In this document: positions 24,699 through 51,691 of the stretch, piece after piece | How positions within the stretch are numbered: the first letter of the stretch is position 1 | Layout of the letters: every line of letters starts with the position of its first letter | Source of the DNA: Bacilli bacterium | Lineage (GTDB): Bacteria; Bacillota_I; Bacilli_A; RFN20; CAG-826 | Assembly (NCBI GenBank): GCA_035647455.1 | Contig: DASRNI010000028.1 | Span: 202,736 to 266,735, forward strand | Direction of reading: 5' to 3' | Length of the DNA stretch: 64,000 bases | Notes under the pieces: model-generated | Databases searched by the model: none | What the model was told of the DNA's origin: nothing | The model's input: the letters and a program-made list of their open reading frames with translations, nothing else | Made by a program: the position numbers and the translations under genes

Positions 24699-27128
24699 AT
24701 GAAACTAAAAAAACTAGCGTTAATCTCATTACTTGGCGTCGTTGCATTAGCAGGCTGTCGCAAAGACGATTCAAGTCGTGATGATACATCTTCCGATGTC
24801 GACGTAATTGAAAATCTTGCTGATGGTGTTCGTAACTTTGTTAACAACCCAATTGAAGATCGTTCAGAAATCTTACGTTTACTCGAAAAGTATACGCTCG
24901 AAAACTTTTTAGGAGGAATTCCATACCGTGATAACAGTGGATTCGTTTTATACCACGACCGCTTAGAAATTCCAGCTGACGATTACGTCGTCGGATACGG
25001 ATTTGGTGTTGGTGAAGCACTGATCACCGAAGGACTCGAACACGTGGAAATTACTCCTGCACACAAAATGTACTACCATTCCTGGCAAAGTGAAGACCCA
25101 GGTACAATCAACTACATGAACGCTCAAGACAGCGTTACAAGTGATTTATATAGTATGGTCACTGGCTCATATTGGAGTACAAAATTTAACGATGACAAGA
25201 CTGGTTACGAATGGTATCCATTACTTGCGAAAGATGCCGAACGTCCAGTTCCGCTCAACTTAGACCCAGACACAGGCATGGGAACAAAATGGAAAGTACC
25301 AGTCCACGTTGGTGGCGACCTCAAGTACAGCACATTAAGTGATGTACCAGCGATTAAAGCTTTTGATGGCCGTGCCGTTGCCCTCGAAGACTACTTAACA
25401 CCATTCAAACTCATGTTAGACAACAAATGGTTCCGTGCAACTGACCTTGGCTCATACAGCAGTGGATTTGCTGGAGTTACGGCCTATATGAACGCAGCCG
25501 AAGGTGTTAAAAACTGGGAAGGTGTTGGTATTCAAGTTGATGAATCCGATAATTCACTCGTTTTCACATTCAATTCAGCCAAAACACCATTTAAAGCGAT
25601 GTATAGCTTATCCTCAAGTTTATTCTCACCAATTCCAATGGATTTCATTACGGCAATTGGTGGCGCAGCTGAATACGGAAAACCAAATGTTGATAGTGTT
25701 TTATCAATTGGTGCATACACGCTTGAACTTTGGGAAAACGATAAAGAAGTCGTCTTCAAGAAAAACCCACGTTACATCGAAGCGGACAAATACACGCACG
25801 AAGGTTACGTCTACACAATCTTAGAAGATAACAACGTTGCTTTCCAAGAGTTCTTAGATGGTAAACTTGACAGTGCTGGTGTTCCACCCGCACAACTTGA
25901 TTCTTACAAAACAGACCCACGTGCGCGCCAAACTGTTGGTGACACTGTCTGGAAACTTCAAGTTAACGGTGCAGACGAAGCATTATGGGATCAATTATTC
26001 GGTGAAGAAGGTTCAGTCTCACCTGGTTCCGAATGGGATCTCAAACCAGTCATGTCAAACCGTGACTTCTTATATGGTTTATACTTCTCGCTTGACCGTG
26101 AAGAGTTAGCCTTATCAACCGGAAGCCGCCCAGCACAAGCATTCTTAAGCGAAAACTACATGATTGACGCAGAAGCTGGTGTATCATGGCGCTTATCTGA
26201 TGAAGGTAAAGCAGTTACAGAAGACTTATTACCAGAACGTTTCGGTTATTCAACCGCATTAGCCGGTGAATTCTTCCGTGACGCAATGGAAGATTTAATT
26301 GCTGCGGGTAAATATGTCCGCGGAACAAATACTGATCCAACGAAAATCGAACTTGGACTTCACTTCCAAACAGAATCACAAATTGATGCTGAAGGTGCAG
26401 TCCTCGCACGCATGATTGAAGGAACGTTTAACGCCGCAGTTCCTGGCTTTGAACTTAAACTTGACATGTATGCAACTGCCCACTGGCAGGACCCATACTA
26501 TGCCGCAATGGATGGTGAATTCGACATGGCATTTGGTTCAATTAGTGGAAACCCACTTGACCCAATTGACTTCTTAGACACAGTCCGTAGTGACAATAGC
26601 AGTGGCTTCACCCTCTCATGGGGTACAGACACAAGCAAACCAAGCCGCGACCTTGAATTCAAAGGTGAAGTATACGCGTTTGACGCATTACAACGTGCTG
26701 GCTTAGGCTTAACTGTTGTTGAAGACGGCGAAGAAGCAATGCTTTTAGACCTTAACAAATTTAGCTGGAGCCGCAACCCAGATGGCAGCCTCGCGCTCGA
26801 CGCAAGTGGTGTCTTCTACAATGGCGATCCAGATTACGTTATTGAACCTGACGAAGACGGTTTAAACGTTAACGGATTCCCATTCATGGGCTTAGCACTC
26901 TTCGATGGCGCTGGTGACTTCATCGGTGCAATCGGACTCGAAGCAACGAAGTTTGAAAATGGTGTCTGGGAAGTTAAAGACTTTGAAATGCCAGACTTAG
27001 ACGATTATGGCGTTATCTATGTTGATGCTTACATTAACACTATTCACACATACGGAAAAACTGTTGAACTCAAGACTGATGTCTTTGAATTCATCTGGCC
27101 GTATATCAAACCAGCCGCTGCTGCTTAA
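24699..27128 (+). CDS. oppA: ABC transporter substrate-binding lipoprotein (OppA-like, family 5)
   Basis: 809-aa ORF with a lipoprotein signal peptide MKLKKLALISLLGVVALAGC. It is the first gene of a permease/ATPase operon. Family assigned mainly from context and size. Confidence 0.7.
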   Translation: MKLKKLALISLLGVVALAGCRKDDSSRDDTSSDVDVIENLADGVRNFVNNPIEDRSEILRLLEKYTLENFLGGIPYRDNSGFVLYHDRLEIPADDYVVGYGFGVGEALITEGLEHVEITPAHKMYYHSWQSEDPGTINYMNAQDSVTSDLYSMVTGSYWSTKFNDDKTGYEWYPLLAKDAERPVPLNLDPDTGMGTKWKVPVHVGGDLKYSTLSDVPAIKAFDGRAVALEDYLTPFKLMLDNKWFRATDLGSYSSGFAGVTAYMNAAEGVKNWEGVGIQVDESDNSLVFTFNSAKTPFKAMYSLSSSLFSPIPMDFITAIGGAAEYGKPNVDSVLSIGAYTLELWENDKEVVFKKNPRYIEADKYTHEGYVYTILEDNNVAFQEFLDGKLDSAGVPPAQLDSYKTDPRARQTVGDTVWKLQVNGADEALWDQLFGEEGSVSPGSEWDLKPVMSNRDFLYGLYFSLDREELALSTGSRPAQAFLSENYMIDAEAGVSWRLSDEGKAVTEDLLPERFGYSTALAGEFFRDAMEDLIAAGKYVRGTNTDPTKIELGLHFQTESQIDAEGAVLARMIEGTFNAAVPGFELKLDMYATAHWQDPYYAAMDGEFDMAFGSISGNPLDPIDFLDTVRSDNSSGFTLSWGTDTSKPSRDLEFKGEVYAFDALQRAGLGLTVVEDGEEAMLLDLNKFSWSRNPDGSLALDASGVFYNGDPDYVIEPDEDGLNVNGFPFMGLALFDGAGDFIGAIGLEATKFENGVWEVKDFEMPDLDDYGVIYVDAYINTIHTYGKTVELKTDVFEFIWPYIKPAAAA

Positions 27129-42915: not shown

Positions 42916-43802
42916 TGAACTTTAAAAAATACGTCAATAGTTTACCGTCATTAAAAGGACAAAAAATTGTGATAACGGGCACCACAAGTGGGCTCGGATT
43001 TGCCCTTAGCGAACTTGTACTCATCAAAGGTGGCGATTTAATTATGGCTAATCGCACAAGTAGTCGCGCCACAAAAGCGCAAGCGTATTTAAGTGAAAAA
43101 TACGGCGCTCAAAAAGTACAAACAATCACATACGATCAAAGTGATACAACAACATTTGCCGCGTTTATTAATGAACTCAAAAACTTAAAGGGAGAAATCA
43201 ATGCTTTTGTTTTTAATGCTGGTGTTTATTTGCCTGATGAAGCATTACGCACGGATAAAGATTTAATGTTAACGTTTGGCGTTAATTACTTTGGTAATTA
43301 TGCTTTGACTGAAAAACTTTATGAAAGCGGACTCGTCAAAAAGTCAACAAGATTAATATACACGACATCGATTGCTGCGAATAAAAAACTTTCAACAAAA
43401 TGTGTTAATCATCTCTTTAATAACACAGTACCTAAACGTCATCGCGAATATAAATACTCCAAAACAGCTTTAAATATTTACGCAAGTAATTTAATGAATA
43501 CAAAAGAAAACAATGTCTATTTATATCATCCCGGAGTTACGGGAACGAATATTGTCCGTTTCCGCGGTAAACTCATTCGTAGACTTGCGCGCTTTTTCAT
43601 GAAACTTATCTTCCCACCCACGAATAAAGCCGCGCTTGGTGCGATGCTCGCATTAACGACAGAAGACGGTGGTAAAAATCACATAATTGTTCCGCGTGGC
43701 GCTTTTAACATTGTTGGTTATCCGAAGTTCAAAGAGTTAAAAATAAAAAATAGTGCCGCAAGTGCAACACTACTTGAATTAAGTAAAGAAAAAGCCCGTT
43801 AG
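42915..43802 (+). CDS. Short-chain dehydrogenase/reductase family protein
   Basis: 295-aa ORF with ITGTTSGLGFA (TGxxxGxG) and a YKYSK (YxxxK) motif. Confidence 0.75.
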   Translation: MNFKKYVNSLPSLKGQKIVITGTTSGLGFALSELVLIKGGDLIMANRTSSRATKAQAYLSEKYGAQKVQTITYDQSDTTTFAAFINELKNLKGEINAFVFNAGVYLPDEALRTDKDLMLTFGVNYFGNYALTEKLYESGLVKKSTRLIYTTSIAANKKLSTKCVNHLFNNTVPKRHREYKYSKTALNIYASNLMNTKENNVYLYHPGVTGTNIVRFRGKLIRRLARFFMKLIFPPTNKAALGAMLALTTEDGGKNHIIVPRGAFNIVGYPKFKELKIKNSAASATLLELSKEKAR

Positions 43803-44344
43803 AAATCGAGTTCTAACATTTTTTTGGCATACGTTTCATAAACTTCAATTGTTACCGTACGAATTGACTGAGTTTCGCTATTAATATTAAAATCAATCCC
43901 CTTAATAATATCGGGATCAAACTTTGCGTCATCAAGCGCAATCCGCTCTTTGGCGGCCTTTTCTTTGTCGCCCCGTTCAAGCATTCGCGCGTAACGAACA
44001 TCACGGCTTGCGTGCATAAAAAAAGAAAAGATACAAGGATCATTAAGTTTTTTAAATGCTTTTAACCCGGAAGGGTCAACAATTAAAACTTTGTCATTCG
44101 CGATTTCTACTTTGGAAGTCCCATAATAATTGTCATTGTATTTTGTTGTTTCGACGAAAAAATCTTTATTTTTGAGTTCGATAAATTGTTCGTAACTGAC
44201 GAAATGGTAATCAATCCCGTTTATTTCACCAGGACGCATCGCCCGTGTTGTGTGGGTAACGGCTTTTTTGACACCGAAAAGTTTTCCAAGTTTTTTCGCA
44301 ACTTCGGTTTTACCGCTTGCACTCGCGCCGACTAAAATAATCAT
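43799..44344 (-). CDS. gmk: Guanylate kinase family protein
   Basis: 181-aa ORF with P-loop GASASGKTE, then THTTRAMRPGEINGIDYHFVS and YYGTS. Whether it is the housekeeping gmk or a paralog cannot be told from this window. Confidence 0.7.
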   Translation of the reverse strand: MIILVGASASGKTEVAKKLGKLFGVKKAVTHTTRAMRPGEINGIDYHFVSYEQFIELKNKDFFVETTKYNDNYYGTSKVEIANDKVLIVDPSGLKAFKKLNDPCIFSFFMHASRDVRYARMLERGDKEKAAKERIALDDAKFDPDIIKGIDFNINSETQSIRTVTIEVYETYAKKMLELDF

Positions 44345-44432
44345 AGTAATATATTACGTCAAATTTACGTAAAAAGCACGAAAAAAAGGTCCTGAAAATA
44401 AAATCTTTTGTATTTTTAATTAAGGAGGCGAG

Positions 44433-45398
44433 ATGAAAAAGATTATTCCGCTTATTTTTTTACTTTTAATTCCGTTGCAAAGTGATAGTATGCCGACAAA
44501 TTACCGCGGGATTATTGATCACGAAATTTACCCTTTTCAAATTAATGAGCCGTTCCATATTTCGGTTCCGTTTTATTTTAGTACGGCAACAGCTTTAAGT
44601 TACCGCTATGAAATTGTTAATAGTAACGGTAGAAGTACTTTTTTCGCTGATGATAAAACCGTGAATATTCGCGCGGGCTTTAATTACTTTATTAGTCATA
44701 CGGGCAAAGCTAGTGAATTTAGTCTAGGGCGCAATTATATGCGTCTATATTATCGCTTAGATAGTGAACCTTGGCGAACGTACTATGGTTATTTTTATGG
44801 CTATAATGCGTATAGTAATATTGTAATTAATGATGACGGGGCGGGGAGTTCACTTTTAGCAAACGAAGCGCGATATACGTATTATCAACAATCAAACTCG
44901 GGAATTATCGAACAAATGTTTTTTGATACGTCAGCGTTCAAATTTACTTATACACTACATAATGACTTATATTTTGATTTAGGTAAGTTAACTGCGCGAT
45001 TTATTAATTTTGAACGTTCATTAAGTTACGACGGTGTTCGTGTGAGTTTTAGTGATTATAGTCTTTTCCCAAAACTACCAACATTAGCCGGTAAGAAAGC
45101 GCTCCACTTAAAAATTATTTACACGAATAATGAGTTAAGGTTCCGGCCATACTATCAACTTTATGTTGATCCTAAAACGCATATTATAAGTTATGAAAAA
45201 GAGCCTGGTTTTATTCTCGCTGATAAAATATATTTTCCGCGGGACAAGTTTGATACAGTCAACAATGCTGAAGTAACGATGACGATTACAAATTTTAGTT
45301 ATGGCGGCTTTACGTTAACGTACCATTTTCAACTTAACGTTTTACAAAAGTACTTTGGCGATGGCGGTCTTTATGAAATAGAAGTTGAGCGTTATTAA
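44433..45398 (+). CDS. Secreted hypothetical protein, first gene of the Tad-like cluster
   Basis: 321-aa ORF with strong RBS TAAGGAGG and an N-terminal signal-like segment MKKIIPLIFLLLIPLQS (no lipobox Cys). The remainder is Tyr/Phe/Asn-rich and looks beta-rich. No family recognised. Confidence 0.65.
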   Translation: MKKIIPLIFLLLIPLQSDSMPTNYRGIIDHEIYPFQINEPFHISVPFYFSTATALSYRYEIVNSNGRSTFFADDKTVNIRAGFNYFISHTGKASEFSLGRNYMRLYYRLDSEPWRTYYGYFYGYNAYSNIVINDDGAGSSLLANEARYTYYQQSNSGIIEQMFFDTSAFKFTYTLHNDLYFDLGKLTARFINFERSLSYDGVRVSFSDYSLFPKLPTLAGKKALHLKIIYTNNELRFRPYYQLYVDPKTHIISYEKEPGFILADKIYFPRDKFDTVNNAEVTMTITNFSYGGFTLTYHFQLNVLQKYFGDGGLYEIEVERY

Positions 45399-45399
45399 A

Positions 45400-45777
45400 A
45401 TGTGGGGATATTTAAGTTTTATTTTTTTGTATATGTTTATGGGCACATTTACTGTCAGTGTTAATTTAGTGCATATGAATGAAGTTTTTAATAGTTTTTC
45501 GCATTCCTACGTTGCTACATTTGTGATTTACAACCAAAATTATGATGAGTTACTTTTTGATACGTATAGTTTAAATAGTGAAGTTGCCGCGTACTTTGCC
45601 GAAAATATTAACACGGCAATTAATTATCAATATCAGCTTAATTATTTTTATGACGAAGAAGAAGTGACACACGAAAACACAGTTAATAATTTTACAATTA
45701 CATTAAAAGGTGATGTTGGTTTTTTTGTTGAGTACGAAAAAACATTTCGTTACTATATTGTCCGATGGAGAAGTTAG
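45400..45777 (+). CDS. Small N-terminally anchored protein (possible minor pilin/pseudopilin)
   Basis: ATG at 45400 is 1 nt after the preceding stop (the listed TTG at 45385 is an alternative). It starts MWGYLSFIFLYMFMGTFTVSVNLV and continues with a roughly 100-aa hydrophilic domain. Confidence 0.55.
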   Translation: MWGYLSFIFLYMFMGTFTVSVNLVHMNEVFNSFSHSYVATFVIYNQNYDELLFDTYSLNSEVAAYFAENINTAINYQYQLNYFYDEEEVTHENTVNNFTITLKGDVGFFVEYEKTFRYYIVRWRS

Positions 45778-46682
45778 TTAACGTTATTAACGCAAGTTTC
45801 CTAAAAGACTACGTTAATGATAAGAATATTACGGATATTAGTTATAACGGCCATGAATTGTTTATTTTTGATACAGTTAAAGGACGACGGTTTGCGCGGA
45901 CTGTTACGACGGAAGAAGTAATGGTATTACTACGTAACGTTGCGAACTTAGCAAATGCCCAGTTTTCTTATCGCGACACTTTTTTAGACTTAAGTATTGG
46001 TAAATATCGTCTAAGTGCAATGCATCCAGCGAAAAGTCGTTATAACGAAAAGAAAGCACCTAGTTTTGCTTTGCGCATTAATCATGATTTCTTGAGCACT
46101 AATCCGCATTATATTGACCGTGAAATCACCGAAATTTTAGAAGAACTGCTTATGACGAATAAAACGATCATCATTAGCGGGAAAACAGGAGTTGGGAAAA
46201 CGACGTTACAGAAGTACCTTTTAACGAAACTAAAAAGTGCGACAAGATTAGTCGTAATTGATAACGTCCTTGAGTTAGGTGAAGTAAAAAAACTTAACAA
46301 AGCACTTGATGTGACGCTTTGGCAAACAAGTGAAACGGATGAAGAAGAAATTGGGCAGTACGTTAAAAATGCATTACGGTTTCATCCGGATTACATTATT
46401 ATTGCCGAAAGCCGTGGTACGGAGATGAATGAAGTTTACCAAAGTGTAATCACGGGACATCCGAATATTATTACTTTCCATGCGCGTTCAATCGCGGCTT
46501 GTTATGCCCGTTTAGAGCGGTTAATTAAAAATGCAACGCTTGAAGAAATTTACGAGGCGTTTCCAATTATTATTCACTTAGATAAAACGGAGACAAATAA
46601 ACGCATTGTTCGCTTTATTCAAGAAATCACACTATACAATGAGACAACTAAAAAATTCGAGACACTTTTTGTGGAGCGCTAA
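45765..46682 (+). CDS. T2SS/T4P/T4SS-family secretion ATPase (CpaF/TadA/VirB11-like, minimal length)
   Basis: 305-aa ORF with ITDISYNG, LSAMHP, FALRI, Walker A ISGKTGVGKTT, VVIDNVLEL, Walker B region ALRFHPDYIIIAESRG and His box ITGHPNIITFHARS. Confidence 0.85.
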   Translation: MEKLVNVINASFLKDYVNDKNITDISYNGHELFIFDTVKGRRFARTVTTEEVMVLLRNVANLANAQFSYRDTFLDLSIGKYRLSAMHPAKSRYNEKKAPSFALRINHDFLSTNPHYIDREITEILEELLMTNKTIIISGKTGVGKTTLQKYLLTKLKSATRLVVIDNVLELGEVKKLNKALDVTLWQTSETDEEEIGQYVKNALRFHPDYIIIAESRGTEMNEVYQSVITGHPNIITFHARSIAACYARLERLIKNATLEEIYEAFPIIIHLDKTETNKRIVRFIQEITLYNETTKKFETLFVER

Positions 46683-47372
46683 ATGTTAAATATTATTAGT
46701 TTAGGAATTTTAGTCGCGCTTGTTAGTCTCTATAGTTTGATTATTTATAGTTCACTAACGCTCGTTTTAATTAATGCGCTCGTTACTTTGATGGCCGCAC
46801 TTTTTATTTACGTGCGCAGCACACTTTATCGTGAACGGATAAAGTTATTTATGGATATGGCGAGTTTTATTGAGTTGATGCTTTTAAATATTAATGTGCA
46901 AAAGACGATAGATGGGGCGTTTAACGCTGTAAAAGCGTTGTTAAGTGAAACACTTACGAAAAAATTAAGTACGCTTAATATAGCCGATAGTCGAACAGTG
47001 ATTAATGAATTGACGAATTATTTCGCCCACCATTATTATGATATTTTTACGGGTTTATTGTTTACTTATGAAGAAAGAGGGGGCGATATTATTAAAATGA
47101 GTGAAGTATTATTATTGCGGCTTGATAGCACACGGGGTTTAATTAATGCACTTCAAAAAATCGATTTGCGCTATTTAATTAAGTTTATGAGTAACTGGCT
47201 TTTCATCTTTGCGATTGGTGTTGTTTTTCGTTATGCCTTAAGTAACGTATTTACGACGTTAAATAACAGCATTATTTTTATTATAGGCAACGAAGTTTTA
47301 ATTGTGATTATGCTCTTAAGTTTAATCTTTGTCTTAGAAAACAAAAGGAGACGAATGTTTAATGTTCATTAA
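46683..47372 (+). CDS. T2SSF-like platform protein (TadB-like)
   Basis: 229-aa ORF with N-terminal TM pair, a helical cytoplasmic domain (FIELMLLNINVQKTIDGAFNAV...YEERGGDIIKMSEVLLLRL) and C-terminal TMs. The ATG directly follows the ATPase stop. Confidence 0.6.
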   Translation: MLNIISLGILVALVSLYSLIIYSSLTLVLINALVTLMAALFIYVRSTLYRERIKLFMDMASFIELMLLNINVQKTIDGAFNAVKALLSETLTKKLSTLNIADSRTVINELTNYFAHHYYDIFTGLLFTYEERGGDIIKMSEVLLLRLDSTRGLINALQKIDLRYLIKFMSNWLFIFAIGVVFRYALSNVFTTLNNSIIFIIGNEVLIVIMLLSLIFVLENKRRRMFNVH

Positions 47373-47970
47373 GAAACTTATAAAGTACGGTGCAAGTAGT
47401 GTCTTTATAATTGGTGCTGCGGTTTTATATTTGCTAAAATTCCCGCCGTTATATGCCGCGGCACTAATAATCTTAAGTTTGTTTACATTTATTTTTGTGA
47501 AAACAACCCCAGCAAAAAAGCACTTTACAATTCACGAGTTTATTATCACATTTACCCATTTTCGTGTTGCCCTTGATAGCGATGCAAATGTTTTTTATGC
47601 GCTAGTAACAGCGATTGAACGCGCTGCACCCACGTTAGCGGAAGAATTGCAATTACTCCATAATGAAATGATGACTGATCATAGTGTTACACCGTATATT
47701 AACTTTGCCCAAAACTTTAAGGAACCAATTATCACGCATATTATGATTAATATTTATTTATTAATTAATCATGGAGTCGATGCGAAAAGGTTATGGCAAT
47801 TTAATTATATTTTCGAGACATTAATTAAGGCGAATTATGATGAAGTTTTAGCCGATCATAAAAGTAGTTATGAAAAGTATGATACGGTGCTCTATTTTGG
47901 CACGGCCGTTTTGATGATGACGATTTTGCTTAACGTAATGAATCTGATTGGAGCAGTTATCGGTGGGTAA
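47362..47970 (+). CDS. T2SSF-like platform protein (TadC-like)
   Basis: 202-aa ORF with the same topology (N-terminal TMs, helical middle, C-terminal TM). Overlaps the previous ORF by 11 nt. Confidence 0.5.
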   Translation: MFIKKLIKYGASSVFIIGAAVLYLLKFPPLYAAALIILSLFTFIFVKTTPAKKHFTIHEFIITFTHFRVALDSDANVFYALVTAIERAAPTLAEELQLLHNEMMTDHSVTPYINFAQNFKEPIITHIMINIYLLINHGVDAKRLWQFNYIFETLIKANYDEVLADHKSSYEKYDTVLYFGTAVLMMTILLNVMNLIGAVIGG

Positions 47971-48301
47971 CTTACTTAATACGCTATTCGGTGTTTTACT
48001 GATTCTGCCGATTATTTTGTTTGGGGTGGATCTTTATAGTATTAATGCGACAAAGTCATACTTAGAAGCACGGGCAACGACACTAAGTTACCGCATTAGT
48101 AAAGAAGGTGGTGTCCGGCAAACTTTAGTTAATGAACTTGCCAGTGAAAATATTATTATTAATTGTTTTGGCGAATGTCAAACTGTCAGCGCGGGCCAAA
48201 TTATTAAGTTCCAAATTGCGACGTATTATACGCCAATTGTCATTAATGCTGAAAACTTTGTTATCACCGTAACAAGAACAGTAATGATTGGCTATTTATA
48301 A
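47948..48301 (+). CDS. TadE-like pseudopilin / pilus assembly protein
   Basis: 117-aa ORF (TTG 47948 or GTG 47963). Its N-terminus LLNTLFGVLLILPIILFGVDLYS resembles the TadE N-terminal motif. Overlaps the previous ORF. Confidence 0.55.
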   Translation: MEQLSVGNLLNTLFGVLLILPIILFGVDLYSINATKSYLEARATTLSYRISKEGGVRQTLVNELASENIIINCFGECQTVSAGQIIKFQIATYYTPIVINAENFVITVTRTVMIGYL

Positions 48302-48318
48302 AGTAAGGAGGTGAGAAA

Positions 48319-48477
48319 ATGAGTGAACTAAAAGGACAAATATTAGGTGTATTACTAGTTATTCTCATGTTTGGGATAATTTCTGGAACAATGAAAATGA
48401 TTTTCAATTCAACGACATCACGGATTAGTTCAGAATATGACCAAGCGATATCAAACTTTACTGCTACAACTCCATAA
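48319..48477 (+). CDS. 52-aa Flp/type-IV-pilin-like prepilin candidate (not in the supplied ORF track)
   Basis: ATG 48319 follows a near-perfect RBS AAGGAGGTGA with a 6-nt spacer. Translation: MSELKGQILGVLLVILMFGIISGTMKMIFNSTTSRISSEYDQAISNFTATTP. A short charged leader ending KG is followed by a hydrophobic helix of about 17 aa. It is the last gene of the cluster. Confidence 0.6.
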   Translation: MSELKGQILGVLLVILMFGIISGTMKMIFNSTTSRISSEYDQAISNFTATTP

Positions 48478-48512: not shown

Positions 48513-48541
48513 TTGCCAATAGTGAATATATTTGCTAATAT
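48513..48541 (+). promoter_or_regulatory. Putative promoter of acpP
   Basis: TTGCCA, 17 nt, TAATAT. Lies 17 nt upstream of the ACP start. Confidence 0.45.
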
Positions 48542-48557: not shown

Positions 48558-48785
48558 ATGAATAAAAATCTAGCGAAAATAGAACAAGTGTTCAAGGAGA
48601 TGTTAAACTTAACATCGCTCGAACCCGAAATGGAACTCAAAACTCTTGGTTTAGATAGTCTCGACTTAGTCGAACTAATGATGAAACTCGAAGAAGAGTT
48701 TGGGATTGAATTCACAGATGACGAAATGCTTGGCTTCGAAACAATTGCTGATGTTACTGCCGATATTACAAAAAAATTAAACTAA
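48558..48785 (+). CDS. acpP: Acyl carrier protein
   Basis: 75-aa ORF from the ATG at 48558 (RBS GTGAGGTGG), with phosphopantetheine site LGLDSLDLVELMMKLEEEFGIEF. The listed longer ORF from 48489 is unlikely. Confidence 0.85.
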   Translation: MNKNLAKIEQVFKEMLNLTSLEPEMELKTLGLDSLDLVELMMKLEEEFGIEFTDDEMLGFETIADVTADITKKLN

Positions 48786-49010: not shown

Positions 49011-49023
49011 ATCGAACATTAAA

Positions 49024-49053
49024 GCTTGTCTCAATACGAGATAGGCTTTTTTT
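49024..49053 (+). terminator. Terminator of the tRNA operon (founding copy of the repeated hairpin family)
   Basis: GCTTGTCTC-AATAC-GAGATAGGC (with G-U pairs) followed by T7. Confidence 0.75.
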
Positions 49054-49170: not shown

Positions 49171-50082
49171 ATGATTGATTTAATTCAAGAAAAAGAACTA
49201 ATTGAAAATCGCCTAGATAATTTGATGCATGGTTCTATTGAAATTAGAGAACGAAATGAGCATAAGTATATTTATGTTAACTATCGTGACGTCGGGATTA
49301 AAAGAAGTAAGTACGCTGGTGTTTATTCACCAGAGTTACAAAACACTATTATTGAAAACAATAAACTTGCTAAACAATATAAAAGACGTCTTCGTGAAAT
49401 TAACAAAATTTTGGATGAACTAGGTTATAGCGAGAGCAGTTTAAACGAGAAAATTAAATTAAACATTGATGTCGCCCGGAAAAACTTAGCGGATTCAATC
49501 TACAAGCAAGCAAGACTTGAAGGTATTTTAACAACGTATGCTGATACGGAAACAATCATTGCTGGCGGAAAAGTTAAAAACATGCATATTGATGATGTCA
49601 TGAAGATTGTTAATTTAAAAAGAGCATGGAACTTTATTCTTAACGAATATGTCATTACTCATCCAACAGATTACAACATTTTACGACAAATCAACGGAAT
49701 TGTTGATGACGGTTTTTCATATACAGCCGGGCAAATTAGACCAGTTCCGGTAAAAATCGGTGGATCAACATATTTACCCCCAATACCAATTGAAACGAAA
49801 GTAATTGAAGATATTAATAATATAGTAAATAGTTCCATCAGTGTTGCGGACAAAACAATTGAACTTTTACTTTATGTAACAAAGAGCCAAATATTTATTG
49901 ATGGGAATAAACGTACAGCAGTAATCTTTGCGAACCATTATCTTATAAGTCAGGGTGGAGGACTTATTATTATCCCTGAAGAAGTAGTAACTGAATATGT
50001 TAAACACCTTCTTAATTATTATGAAAACAAAAATGACAAAATCAAAAACTTCTTAAAAGAAAAATGTTTAATGCTTTTCTAA
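49171..50082 (+). CDS. Fic/Doc-family protein with degenerate Doc-type motif (Gln in place of catalytic His)
   Basis: 303-aa ORF. The C-terminal region contains SQIFIDGNKRTAVIFANHYL, which matches the Doc signature HxFx(D/N)(A/G)NKR except H to Q. Upstream, ARLEGILTTYADTETII resembles Fic N-terminal helices. Confidence 0.6.
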   Translation: MIDLIQEKELIENRLDNLMHGSIEIRERNEHKYIYVNYRDVGIKRSKYAGVYSPELQNTIIENNKLAKQYKRRLREINKILDELGYSESSLNEKIKLNIDVARKNLADSIYKQARLEGILTTYADTETIIAGGKVKNMHIDDVMKIVNLKRAWNFILNEYVITHPTDYNILRQINGIVDDGFSYTAGQIRPVPVKIGGSTYLPPIPIETKVIEDINNIVNSSISVADKTIELLLYVTKSQIFIDGNKRTAVIFANHYLISQGGGLIIIPEEVVTEYVKHLLNYYENKNDKIKNFLKEKCLMLF

Positions 50083-50401: not shown

Positions 50402-50434
50402 CATGGTATTATTTAGATGAAAGAGGGGTCTACT

Positions 50435-51691
50435 ATGGAATATATTAAACGTTTAAGTGAAAAGAAATTAGAGTTTTATTTAAGTACTTTTAAAAGTGTA
50501 GCCATTGTCGGTCCTAAGTTTAGTGGTAAAACAACATTGGCAAAACGGTTTGCAAAAAGCGATATTTATTTAACATCACTTAATATTGATGAAAACAAAA
50601 CTATCTTACAGTTAAACCCTGGCCTGTTTTTTACGGGTGATAAACCGAAACTTATTGACGAATGGCAACTTATTCCAGAAGTGTGGGATTTGGTAAGACA
50701 TCAAGTTGATAAAGAAAAAGGACGTGGTTTATATATTTTAACATGCTCGTCTGCGGCGAATCTTGATAAAACAAGACATTCAGGCGCCGGAAGAATCGGG
50801 CGGATGATTGTGCGGCCGATGAGCCTCTTTGAGACAAGTGTTTCCTCTGGTGAAGCTTCACTTAGTGACTTACTTGATGGAAAAAAGTTCGATTCATTTA
50901 AAAGTAATGTTAGTGTTGAAGAATATGCGAAGTGGATTATTAAAGGTGGGTGGCCTGAAGGTATCTACGACACAGAAAAACAAGCAATTAGTAAAAATAG
51001 AGCATACTTAGATGCGCTCGTAAAGGAAGACGTTAATAAAGTGACCGATAAAACTTACAACGAACTCAGAATGCGGAAGATCATTGAATCTCTTGCGCGT
51101 AATACCGCTAGTGAAGCAACAAACGTTAGCATCGAAAGCGATGTTAAAGCGATGGACGAAAGCATTTCCCAAAATACATTAGTCGATTATTTAGATGTTT
51201 TAAATAAACTTTATATAATTGAAGACCTTAAAGCGTGGAATCCTAATTTGCGGTCAAAAGCAGTAATACGCACATCACCAGCAAGATTCTTTGTTGATCC
51301 GTCAATCGGTGCGGCTTCTTTAGGACTAACATCGACAAGACTTTTAAGTGACTTCAAAACGTTTGGACTCTTTTTTGAAGCACTAGTACTAAGAGATATT
51401 AGAGTTTACGCTGATGTTAATCAAGGAGAAGTATATCGTTATAAAGACAGTTCTGGCTTAGAAATTGACATGATTGTTGAACTAGATGACGGGCGATGGG
51501 GAGCGTTTGAAATTAAAATGGGCAGCCATCAATTAGATCAAGCGGCAATGAATTTACATAAACTTGCCGATAACATCGACGAAACCAAAATGATGAAACC
51601 TTCATTTCTTGCGATTATAACCGCAACCGAATATGCATATAGGCGCGAAGATGGAGTGCTTGTTATACCTTTAGCATTGTTGCGTGACTAA
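50435..51691 (+). CDS. AAA+ ATPase (AAA_14-like) with DUF4143 / PD-(D/E)xK-like C-terminal domain
   Basis: Walker A GPKFSGKTT, Walker B LIDEWQ and C-terminal GLEIDMIVE...GAFEIKMG (D...ExK). ATG at 50435 follows AAGAGGGG; the listed ATG at 50417 is an alternative. Confidence 0.75.
   Translation: MEYIKRLSEKKLEFYLSTFKSVAIVGPKFSGKTTLAKRFAKSDIYLTSLNIDENKTILQLNPGLFFTGDKPKLIDEWQLIPEVWDLVRHQVDKEKGRGLYILTCSSAANLDKTRHSGAGRIGRMIVRPMSLFETSVSSGEASLSDLLDGKKFDSFKSNVSVEEYAKWIIKGGWPEGIYDTEKQAISKNRAYLDALVKEDVNKVTDKTYNELRMRKIIESLARNTASEATNVSIESDVKAMDESISQNTLVDYLDVLNKLYIIEDLKAWNPNLRSKAVIRTSPARFFVDPSIGAASLGLTSTRLLSDFKTFGLFFEALVLRDIRVYADVNQGEVYRYKDSSGLEIDMIVELDDGRWGAFEIKMGSHQLDQAAMNLHKLADNIDETKMMKPSFLAIITATEYAYRREDGVLVIPLALLRD

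Follow-up and report, generated by a model that had tools for sequence, protein, structure and literature searches.

What machine is built by seven small, tightly packed genes in the genome of an uncultured Bacilli bacterium? The question is raised by a 64-kb stretch of contig DASRNI010000028.1 (hereafter the window), whose map of open reading frames (ORFs) contains a cassette, O1 to O7, lying entirely on the + strand at positions 44433-48477. The original prediction, made from the letters of the sequence, had seen there the core logic of a Tad/Flp pilus in stripped-down form. In the interpretation presented here the Tad-like logic of a type IV filament machine is retained and the assignment to Tad proper is given up: O1-O7 would encode a minimal machine for type IV filament assembly in a monoderm, of the kind seen in Tad and archaeal pili, a reading to which we attribute a probability of about 0.6. 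The generic components of such filaments were found, namely a T2SSE ATPase, a T2SSF platform that becomes visible at the level of family profiles, and a pilin with a class III signal. The cassette is more than a product of chance, because all seven genes recur in the same order in 37 of the 38 related loci with full flanks, among which the identity of the ATPase descends to about 35%.

The motor ATPase

O3 (45765-46682, + strand, 305 aa) was matched by the Pfam family T2SSE (PF00437) with 68.6 bits and an expectation (E) value of 5e-19, for a cutoff of 24.9, in agreement with its predicted membership of the ATPases of type II secretion systems (T2SS) and type IV pili. The motifs on which that prediction relied are present in the translation, GKTGVGKTT as Walker A, PDYIIIAESRG, and GHPNIITFHA as His box, and they coincide with columns that do not vary in an alignment of 34 family members (G139, G144, K145, T146, D209, E215, R217, G218 and H239). 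The NCBIfam models gave scores that were all far under their cutoffs: 100 bits with the TadA-family model TadA-conj (cutoff 373), 96.6 with VirB11 (TIGR02788, cutoff 250), 90.5 with TrbB (TIGR02782, cutoff 305), 65 with FlaI and 57.6 with ComGA (cutoff 300), together with a weak match to the bindosome ATPase BasE (6e-13). Among PDB sequences, the family profile of O3 found afGspE (2OAP) as the best match (6e-33), followed with nearly equal strength by HP0525 (8e-32), CpaF (3e-30) and FlaI (8e-25). The profile matches cover residues 65-359 of 423, or 144-438 of 501, of CpaF proteins, and since they begin only at residue 65 (or 144), O3 lacks the N-terminal extension of CpaF, as had been anticipated. 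Judged from its sequence, O3 is a T2SSE-superfamily secretion ATPase composed of minimal N-terminal and C-terminal domains without Zn-finger, and the candidate assembly motor. Its mean column identity within the family is 43%, and conservation within the cassette is highest in its cytoplasmic and membrane components.

These family data derive from 115 ATPase homologues, for which the surrounding loci were retrieved, and from 80 more loci added from species-representative genomes. Orthologue sets for each cassette gene were then assembled by iterative hidden Markov model (HMM) searches over every ORF of the gathered loci. The iterated ATPase HMM drifted to the P-loop of the adjacent guanylate kinase, and such matches were excluded.

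The platform proteins

The ATPase gene is followed by O4 (46683-47372, + strand, 229 aa) and O5 (47362-47970, + strand, 202 aa), which are paralogues (hhalign 95%, E 4e-8). They had been described as two T2SSF-like proteins, a view that holds for the families as remote homology and not for the copies of the window, neither of which matches PF00482. Within the orthologue sets, T2SSF was the most frequent Pfam family of O5 (15 of 55 members, best E 3.6e-4) and the third most frequent of O4 (6 of 55, best E 6.7e-5), every one of these matches being subthreshold. The strongest evidence comes from a reciprocal jackhmmer test. The search was seeded with an archaeal protein carrying a clean T2SSF domain (4e-15), and its second-iteration profile, composed only of archaeal sequences and one Acidobacteriota sequence, already reached core members of both families with E values from 7e-10, obtained with O4 members, to 2e-4. 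On convergence it comprised 156 ORFs, nearly all of them adjoining an ATPase gene, and matched copies identical to those of the window (O5 at 1.5e-23, O4 at 1.4e-20). Moreover, natural O4-O5 fusions of 387-404 aa, in which O5 forms the C-terminal half, occur in one related locus (L023, 7899-9113) and in three representative clusters (P0136, P0137 and P0139), and mirror the two-domain architecture of PilC/FlaJ. The O5 family as a whole is small: of 1.84 billion proteins searched, 151 representatives reach E <= 1e-3. O4 and O5 are remote T2SSF platform homologues, a TadB/TadC-like pair whose kinship is visible at the family-profile level only.

Structure prediction with AlphaFold 2 (AF2), done for O4 and O1 from shallow alignments of 9 and 7 sequences, yielded for O4 an all-helical model with a predicted local distance difference test (pLDDT) score of 82. 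Its sole compact structural match was the N-domain of PilC (2whn; probability 0.54, TM score 0.55, not significant). The family profiles of O4, O5, O6 and O1 retrieved nothing meaningful from the PDB sequences.

The pilin-like proteins

The last gene, O7 (48319-48477, + strand, 52 aa), encodes a six-residue leader, MSELKG, followed by Gln at position +1, a hydrophobic helix of ~20 residues and a short variable tail. The family shares the motif MSE(I/L)KG↓QLLG(I/M)xLV, where the arrow marks the predicted cleavage site; M1, E3 and K5 are invariant in 54 orthologues, and S2, G6, Q7, L9, G10, L13 and F18 are conserved in at least 90% (G6 and Q7 in 43-54 orthologues). The C-terminal tail, on the contrary, is hypervariable, and tandem duplicates with diverged tails occur in two loci (L051, 9766-10142; L027, 9771-10141). 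The pilin-like character that had been ascribed to this ORF is therefore borne out by a pilin-type leader conserved across orthologues. Its proposed kinship with Flp pilins is not: the list of 25 families drawn up for 43 O7 orthologues, each reaching at most 4 members even with E <= 5, does not include Flp_Fap (PF04964), and positions +5/+6 are hydrophobic instead of Glu-Tyr. The Pfam Class III signal and archaeal Pilin_N families, in turn, did not match, apart from one member of the 43 with an E value of 0.04. The KG↓Q leader is similar to class III signals of the archaeal or Com type. With its short Gly-ending leader, its hydrophobic helix, its hypervariable tail, the strongest ribosome-binding site (RBS) of the operon (AAGGAGGTGA, of AAGGAGG type) and its occasional duplication, O7 fits a major pilin, and we consider it the candidate major subunit, with a class-III-type leader for which cleavage is predicted.

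O6 (47963-48301, + strand) has 112 aa, or 117 aa if TTG at 47948 is the start. Its N-terminal hydrophobic helix contains a conserved Asp, and its C-terminal part the motif R(S/T)xV(I/V)GY; most orthologues begin MSYK(L/I)G↓LxLS, and D23 is nearly invariant. It had been called TadE-like, and TadE is not among the Pfam families matched by the O6 orthologues. The top family was instead TadF (PF16964), which reached only 6 of 55 members with a best E value of 6.4e-4, so that O6 may be described as a pilin-like or pseudopilin protein that is weakly TadF-like.

The proteins O1 and O2

O1 (44433-45398, + strand, 321 aa) had been predicted to be secreted, and its 57 orthologues carry Sec-type signal peptides or lipoboxes throughout, many of them ending in GxCxxSxYC. 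Its mean column identity, 15%, is the lowest in the cassette, of which it is the fastest-evolving member, and it has no Pfam or PDB sequence match. The AF2 model of O1 is all-beta and of low confidence (pLDDT 49.8), and Foldseek related it to generic immunoglobulin-like sandwiches only (E >= 7e-3). The matches to transglutaminase and glycoside hydrolase family 2 beta-sandwiches were set aside as non-informative. O1 would be a secreted or lipid-anchored, predicted beta-rich protein, and a candidate adhesin or envelope accessory.

O2 (45400-45777, + strand) comprises 125 aa, or 130 aa if TTG at 45385 is the start. A transmembrane helix is predicted from residue ~3, followed by an external domain of ~100 aa. 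The gene is located directly upstream of the ATPase gene in all core loci, and the protein, which has no significant profile match, may be an assembly accessory or of minor pilin-like type.

Operon structure and expression signals

The ORF coordinates bear out the predicted packing of seven co-directional ORFs. Successive genes overlap by 14, 13, 11 and 23 (or 8) nt, in one case they abut exactly, and the sole gap inside the cassette, of 17 nt, precedes O7. O1-O7 probably form one operon. All seven genes end in TAA or TAG. O1 has a strong RBS, AAGGAGG, 5 nt ahead of the ATG, and the intergenic leader that was read at 44345-44432 (+ strand), between O1 and a divergent guanylate-kinase-like gene, probably carries the promoter region of the operon. 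The promoter-like hexamers found by pattern scan at 44309-44338 are consensus matches only. The same kind of scan detected three weak terminator-like hairpins within the cassette, two on the + and one on the - strand, with no excess over shuffled sequences; the first strong one 3' of the cassette is located at 49021-49049, beyond two tRNA genes. GC content and skew of the cassette are the same as those of the neighbouring DNA.

Genomic setting and host lineage

The cassette is flanked by housekeeping genes. Upstream, a short, divergent guanylate-kinase-like gene (43799-44344, - strand) accompanies it in 34 of the 38 loci, and downstream a stand-alone acyl carrier protein gene (48563-48785, + strand, 74 aa), which in the window has its own promoter-like site at 48513-48541, does so in the same number. 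Functional coupling with these neighbours and frozen synteny are both conceivable. From the same flanks and the same order it follows that the locus is chromosomal and vertically inherited, and not a mobile element; an origin from a mobile element or a prophage is ruled out by this conserved housekeeping synteny. No VirB4, VirD4, relaxase, VirB6 or VirB8 genes were found in the window or in the core loci.

Carrier genomes bear the labels Bacilli, Mollicutes, Tenericutes, Erysipelotrichaceae or Candidatus (Allo)enteromonas; the names of several isolates indicate an origin from rumen, faeces or chicken gut. The host had been taken for an Acholeplasma-like, possibly wall-less bacterium, an identification that the RNase J comparison does not establish: Acholeplasma is absent from the best 80 matches, and the nearest relatives are uncultured 'Tenericutes/Bacilli bacterium' metagenome-assembled genomes (MAGs) with 77-87% identity, including 'Tenericutes bacterium ADurb.Bin087/Bin239'. 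Rumen MAGs labelled Erysipelotrichaceae come next (55-58%), with Erysipelothrix at ~51% and Spiroplasma at ~49%. A Mycoplasma-type genetic code is ruled out, as TGA is a stop, Trp is encoded by TGG and the code is the standard one. At 245-2384 of the window, a DAC-domain (DisA_N) gene, probably that of the cyclic di-AMP cyclase CdaA, abuts a phosphoglucosamine-mutase-like (GlmM) gene, a pairing typical of Bacillota. A wall-less state should not be assumed, because GlmM hints at amino-sugar envelope precursors. In literature searches covering Tenericutes, RF39 and Acholeplasma, no account of such a filament system was met with.

Other features of the surroundings were recorded. More distant family members have an extra gene of ~105-120 aa ahead of O1 that is missing from the window (for example L011 6293-6625, L013 6281-6598, L034 5185-5508, and many other core loci). 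Its product ends in NNxFF..WW..YS.STYYR.K..A..F, a motif reminiscent of sigma-70 region-4/ArpU-like helix-turn-helix domains and devoid of Pfam match, and it may be a regulator. Downstream of the acyl carrier protein gene, the segment 48853-51691 contains tRNA-Asn and tRNA-Glu genes, a Fic/DOC protein gene (49171-50082) and an AAA_14/DUF4143 ATPase gene (50417-51691). The two protein genes are not syntenic with the closest relative, since locus L008 has other genes after the acyl carrier protein gene, which suggests a small insertion beside the tRNA genes. GC content rises locally to 0.44-0.45 (against ~0.36) at 24699-27128, where an 809-aa family-5 solute-binding protein is encoded; it probably heads an oligopeptide ABC transporter operon, of which only the binding protein was annotated.

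ATPase phylogeny and plasmid relatives

The ATPase is placed outside the CpaF/TadA clade by a rough neighbour-joining tree of 41 sequences (297 columns, 300 bootstraps). The cassette ATPases form one clade in it (82% bootstrap), sister to a plasmid-type group of Bacillaceae and Clostridia (77-80%), and CpaF, an Acidobacteriota homologue and the archaeal ATPases make up a separate clade (88%). HP0525, the VirB11 of H. pylori, did not group with the cassette family and was no closer to it than CpaF or the archaeal ATPases, and the ComGA-type loci L001-L003 were the outgroup.

The sister group leads to conjugative plasmids. By tblastn, genes annotated as 'CpaF/VirB11 family' and ~30% identical to O3 were found on 243 plasmids, 197 of them predicted to be conjugative, with Bacillus (155), Listeria (45) and Enterococcus (28) as hosts. 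A module collinear with O1-O7 and of similar protein sizes is present in a pLS20-family plasmid (L095, NZ_OX419552.1, 5515-12440), in pHTβ (L176, NC_007594.1, 925-9461) and in a sister-clade locus of Bacillus massiliglaciei (L075, 4060-12789). In pLS20/pHTβ the order is a surface adhesin, a ~126-140 aa protein with an N-terminal transmembrane helix, the ATPase, two membrane proteins of ~245-270 aa, a 120-aa protein and one or more hydrophobic peptides of ~47 aa. In pLS20 the corresponding genes are 34 and 36-41, and the Enterococcus version is of the pHTβ/pMG1 type. Gene 37 of pLS20 figures as a 'putative VirB11', whereas the products of genes 36 and 38-41 are listed there as unknown (PMC8557374). 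Homology with the cassette was established for four genes of the plasmid six-gene set, the core-family HMMs matching the plasmid ATPase at 3e-73, gene 38 at 1e-5, gene 39 at 6e-9 and gene 40 at 2e-3. With the core profile of O6, the 120-aa gene-40 equivalents of the plasmid loci gave values from 2e-6 to 2e-3. O2 is the positional equivalent of gene 36, with an hhalign E value of 1e-3 and a probability of only 21% against gene-36-like proteins, and the sequences of O1, O2 and O7 are not significantly similar to those of the plasmid equivalents. The profile of O7 could nevertheless be aligned with small pilins of some sister-clade loci, which carry a KG↓A-type leader (hhalign probability 65%, E 6e-5).

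The differences are equally clear. Plasmid ATPases are ~100 residues longer than O3 at the N-terminus, and the pLS20-type small peptides start MLDQN(T/A)DR, without a KG↓Q leader. In addition, the plasmid modules sit in conjugation operons with VirD4, VirB4 and VirB2/PrgI-like genes and thioester or isopeptide adhesins, a context missing in the window; VirD4 is encoded further downstream in both the pLS20-family plasmid and pHTβ, and pHTβ also has a TrbC/VirB2-family gene. From these sequence comparisons, the relation of the cassette to the pLS20/pHTβ module appears to be that of a sister group, not of membership. The original prediction was to fail if the ATPase clustered with VirB11/TrbB proteins inside a conjugative element: its nearest outgroup does consist of the 'putative VirB11' of pLS20/pHTβ, but the cassette itself has no genes of a type IV secretion system (T4SS) and lies between housekeeping flanks.

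Comparison with known filament systems

With Tad/Flp pili the cassette shares an ATPase gene followed by two separate, adjacent genes for single-domain platform proteins, a very small pilin without globular domain and a weakly TadF-like, putative minor pilin, and, like the Tad loci of monoderms, it has no secretin. It differs in that O3 is placed outside the clade of CpaF and the archaeal ATPases in the rough tree and lacks the CpaF N-terminal extension, in that TadZ is missing, and in that the pilin has neither the Flp motif nor an Flp_Fap match. The platform proteins are also shorter, ~200-230 aa against ~300 aa in Tad. Hence, of the Tad features, the two platform genes are present and the TadA/CpaF-clade ATPase, the Flp-family pilin and TadZ are not. 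A classical tad locus does exist in a member of the related order Erysipelotrichales, Bulleidia extructa, where 13 genes including TadV and the standard components can be detected by HMM searches or AlphaFold 3 modelling (PMC12786226); unlike the cassette it is fully recognisable, and it represents a different system.

Archaeal type IV pili are close in other respects. The archaeal 'GspE' 2OAP is the best PDB match of the ATPase profile, and profile searches that start from archaeal T2SSF proteins bring up O4/O5. Pilins of the EppA type have, like O7, a K-G↓Q type leader without Glu+5. Epd-like archaeal systems also have two platform genes (PMC6668835). On the other hand, O3, with 305 aa, is half as long as the archaeal ATPases that were retrieved (520-610 aa), the cassette includes no FlaH/KaiC-like second ATPase, and the host is a bacterium.

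ComG pili combine a fused, two-domain ComGB with Glu+5 pilins, whereas the cassette has a split platform and a 46-aa pilin without Glu+5; these two traits and the ComGA score separate it from ComG. From VirB11/TrbB it is separated by scores below the cutoffs, by the lack of T4SS genes and by the position of HP0525. The cassette is accordingly not to be filed as a Tad system, nor as a VirB11 T4SS component here, nor as ComG. An uncharacterised, secretion-related operon of 8-9 genes was predicted in the Gram-positive gut bacteria Roseburia/Ruminococcus/Eubacterium by Miller et al. 2022, with a CpaF-like ATPase, a PilC/GspF-like protein, a DUF5411 protein and a remainder without recognisable homology (PMC9523054). 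Compared by its description only, it differs in belonging to Clostridia, in its internalin-like protein and in that its parts are found by standard annotation. DUF5411 weakly matched the gene-36 equivalent of the Bacillus massiliglaciei locus (3.6e-4).

Proposed mechanism and alternative explanations

In the filament model, O3 would assemble as a hexamer on the cytoplasmic side of the membrane and dock on a platform that consists of O4 and O5, the counterparts of TadB/TadC or of the two PilC/FlaJ halves. The O7 prepilin would insert in the membrane, and a class III signal (prepilin) peptidase with its gene at another place in the genome would cut off the leader MSELKG behind the Gly. The resulting helical subunit of ~46 residues would be lifted from the bilayer by ATP-driven movement of the platform and polymerised to a thin, Flp-sized filament. 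O6, which is weakly TadF-like, and possibly O2 could serve as pilin-like subunits of a minor, priming or anchoring type, and O1 as an accessory outside the cell, for which an adhesin or a wall-spanning partner is the likeliest choice. In the communities of gut, rumen and digester, the likeliest task of the filament would be adhesion or contact between cells.

Several observations weigh against this model. The main gap is the absence of a linked peptidase, which makes processing putative: no A24 prepilin peptidase was found in the 64-kb window by a GxGD motif scan and by Pfam on the ORFs with multiple transmembrane segments, and the motif scan also found none within the ~7 kb flanks of 94 related loci. 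An unlinked, shared prepilin peptidase is, however, common in type IV filament systems, and generic models of type IV filaments allow for it (PMC6668835). O7 lacks both the Glu+5 on which most bacterial type IV pilins rely and the G/XXXXEY motif of Flp. In the O6 of the window, Asn replaces the -1 Gly of most orthologues, so that cleavage of this protein is doubtful. The copies of O4, O5, O6 and O7 in the window have no Pfam or NCBIfam match; T2SSF, TadE and Flp_Fap, the families expected besides T2SSE, thus match none of its proteins, and T2SSE alone was recovered. Foldseek gave no significant match for the O4 model, so that the structural examination proposed for the platform returned a confident, all-helical model without an identified fold, and hhalign of the O4/O5 profiles against a thin, four-sequence archaeal alignment was weak (E ~1e-3). 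To O1 and O2 no fold or family could be assigned by profile, PDB or model searches. Finally, all the carriers found are uncultured, metagenome-assembled genomes. Other components had been reported missing, and motif and Pfam scans upheld this for the window: like the peptidase, secretin and CpaB are absent from it, secretin also from the flanks of related loci, and no TadZ/CpaE-like (ParA/MinD-like) gene was seen in the cassette, the window or the conserved flanks.

Of the alternatives, DNA uptake is the main functional rival and export of O1 a lesser one. The same machine could operate as a competence-type pseudopilus, for transformation or for use of DNA as a nucleotide source, replacing ComG or acting beside it. 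Such a role has a precedent in the monoderm Micrococcus luteus, where Flp/Tad-type pili are needed for natural transformation (PMC4322843), and it would suit a cassette inherited vertically like a housekeeping function and paired divergently in 34 of 38 loci with a guanylate-kinase-like gene, that is, with nucleotide salvage, although this neighbourhood may be coincidental. The short MSE(I/L)KG leader is also similar to those of the ComGC type. The remaining parts of a competence system do not follow: neither in the window nor in those related loci that were inspected do ComEA, ComEC or ComFA adjoin the cassette, O3 is far from ComGA both in score (57.6 bits against 300) and in the tree, where ComGA-type loci are the outgroup, O7 has neither the Glu+5 nor the size of Com pilins, and a fast-evolving secreted O1 suits an adhesin better. 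We therefore regard DNA uptake as unlikely. The lesser rival supposes a T2SS-like pseudopilus working as a piston, which without building a long pilus would export or display O1 or other class-III-signal proteins, in the manner of the archaeal bindosome. The constant first position of O1 in the operon, its signal peptide, the weak BasE match (6e-13) and the minimal composition of the system, without retraction or alignment components, agree with it. Yet the signal of O1 is an ordinary Sec or lipoprotein signal that needs no dedicated exporter in a monoderm, the locus encodes no other class-III-signal substrates, and O7, tiny and Flp-sized, with its hypervariable tail and very strong RBS, looks like a subunit that is abundant and exposed. 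This makes the piston improbable.

Plasmid kinship raises a further alternative, in which the cassette would be a remnant or component of a Gram-positive conjugative T4SS, with a VirB11-like traffic ATPase and channel proteins and no filament. The nearest ATPase outgroup is indeed the 'CpaF/VirB11 family' of 243 plasmids, 197 of them predicted conjugative; the collinear module of pLS20-type plasmids and pHTβ adjoins VirD4, VirB2-like and PrgI genes, and the name 'putative VirB11' is in use for gene 37 of pLS20 (PMC8557374). The NCBIfam VirB11 and TrbB models, in addition, score 97 and 91 bits. These scores are far under the respective cutoffs of 250 and 305 bits, though, and a true VirB11, HP0525, is not grouped with the cassette family. 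Neither the window nor the core loci contain VirB4, VirD4, a relaxase, VirB6 or VirB8, and the same housekeeping flanks are kept in 34 of 38. VirB11 systems have no T2SSF platforms or class-III-leader peptides, and the module has both, even on plasmids. A T4SS origin is in our judgement very improbable, and the minimal filament assembly machine is the interpretation retained.

A broader proposal can be put forward tentatively, at somewhat less than even odds. The cassette would belong to an unnamed, Bacillota-specific branch of type IV filaments that is neither Tad proper nor Com nor type IVa pilus, and that exists both as a vertically inherited chromosomal operon of uncultured, Mollicutes-related Bacilli and as the plasmid module annotated as VirB11 plus unknowns, perhaps with a non-canonical pilin processing, in line with the missing Glu+5 and the missing linked peptidase.

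Implications for plasmids and for the reduced-genome Bacilli

The plasmid modules may build a Tad-like filament. pLS20-type plasmids are said to encode no pilus components (PMC8557374). If the broader proposal is true, the plasmid form would be the first case of a type IV filament serving as mating appendage in a Gram-positive conjugation system, systems which, to our knowledge, are currently thought to be pilus-free. The kinship with pLS20 genes 36-41 and with pHTβ makes a Tad-like filament on conjugative plasmids a testable idea in the tractable Bacillus subtilis.

With its short ATPase, its two platform halves of ~200 aa and its 46-residue pilin, the cassette is among the smallest candidate gene sets for a type IV filament, and it could be of use in working out what filament assembly minimally requires. 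Moreover, if the reading proposed here is true, a large, uncultured group of reduced-genome Bacilli from gut, rumen and digester bears a filament overlooked by standard annotation, since no profile matches six of the seven proteins. Such a hidden filament would bear on the models of adhesion, of dependence on hosts or partners and of gene exchange in these Bacilli.

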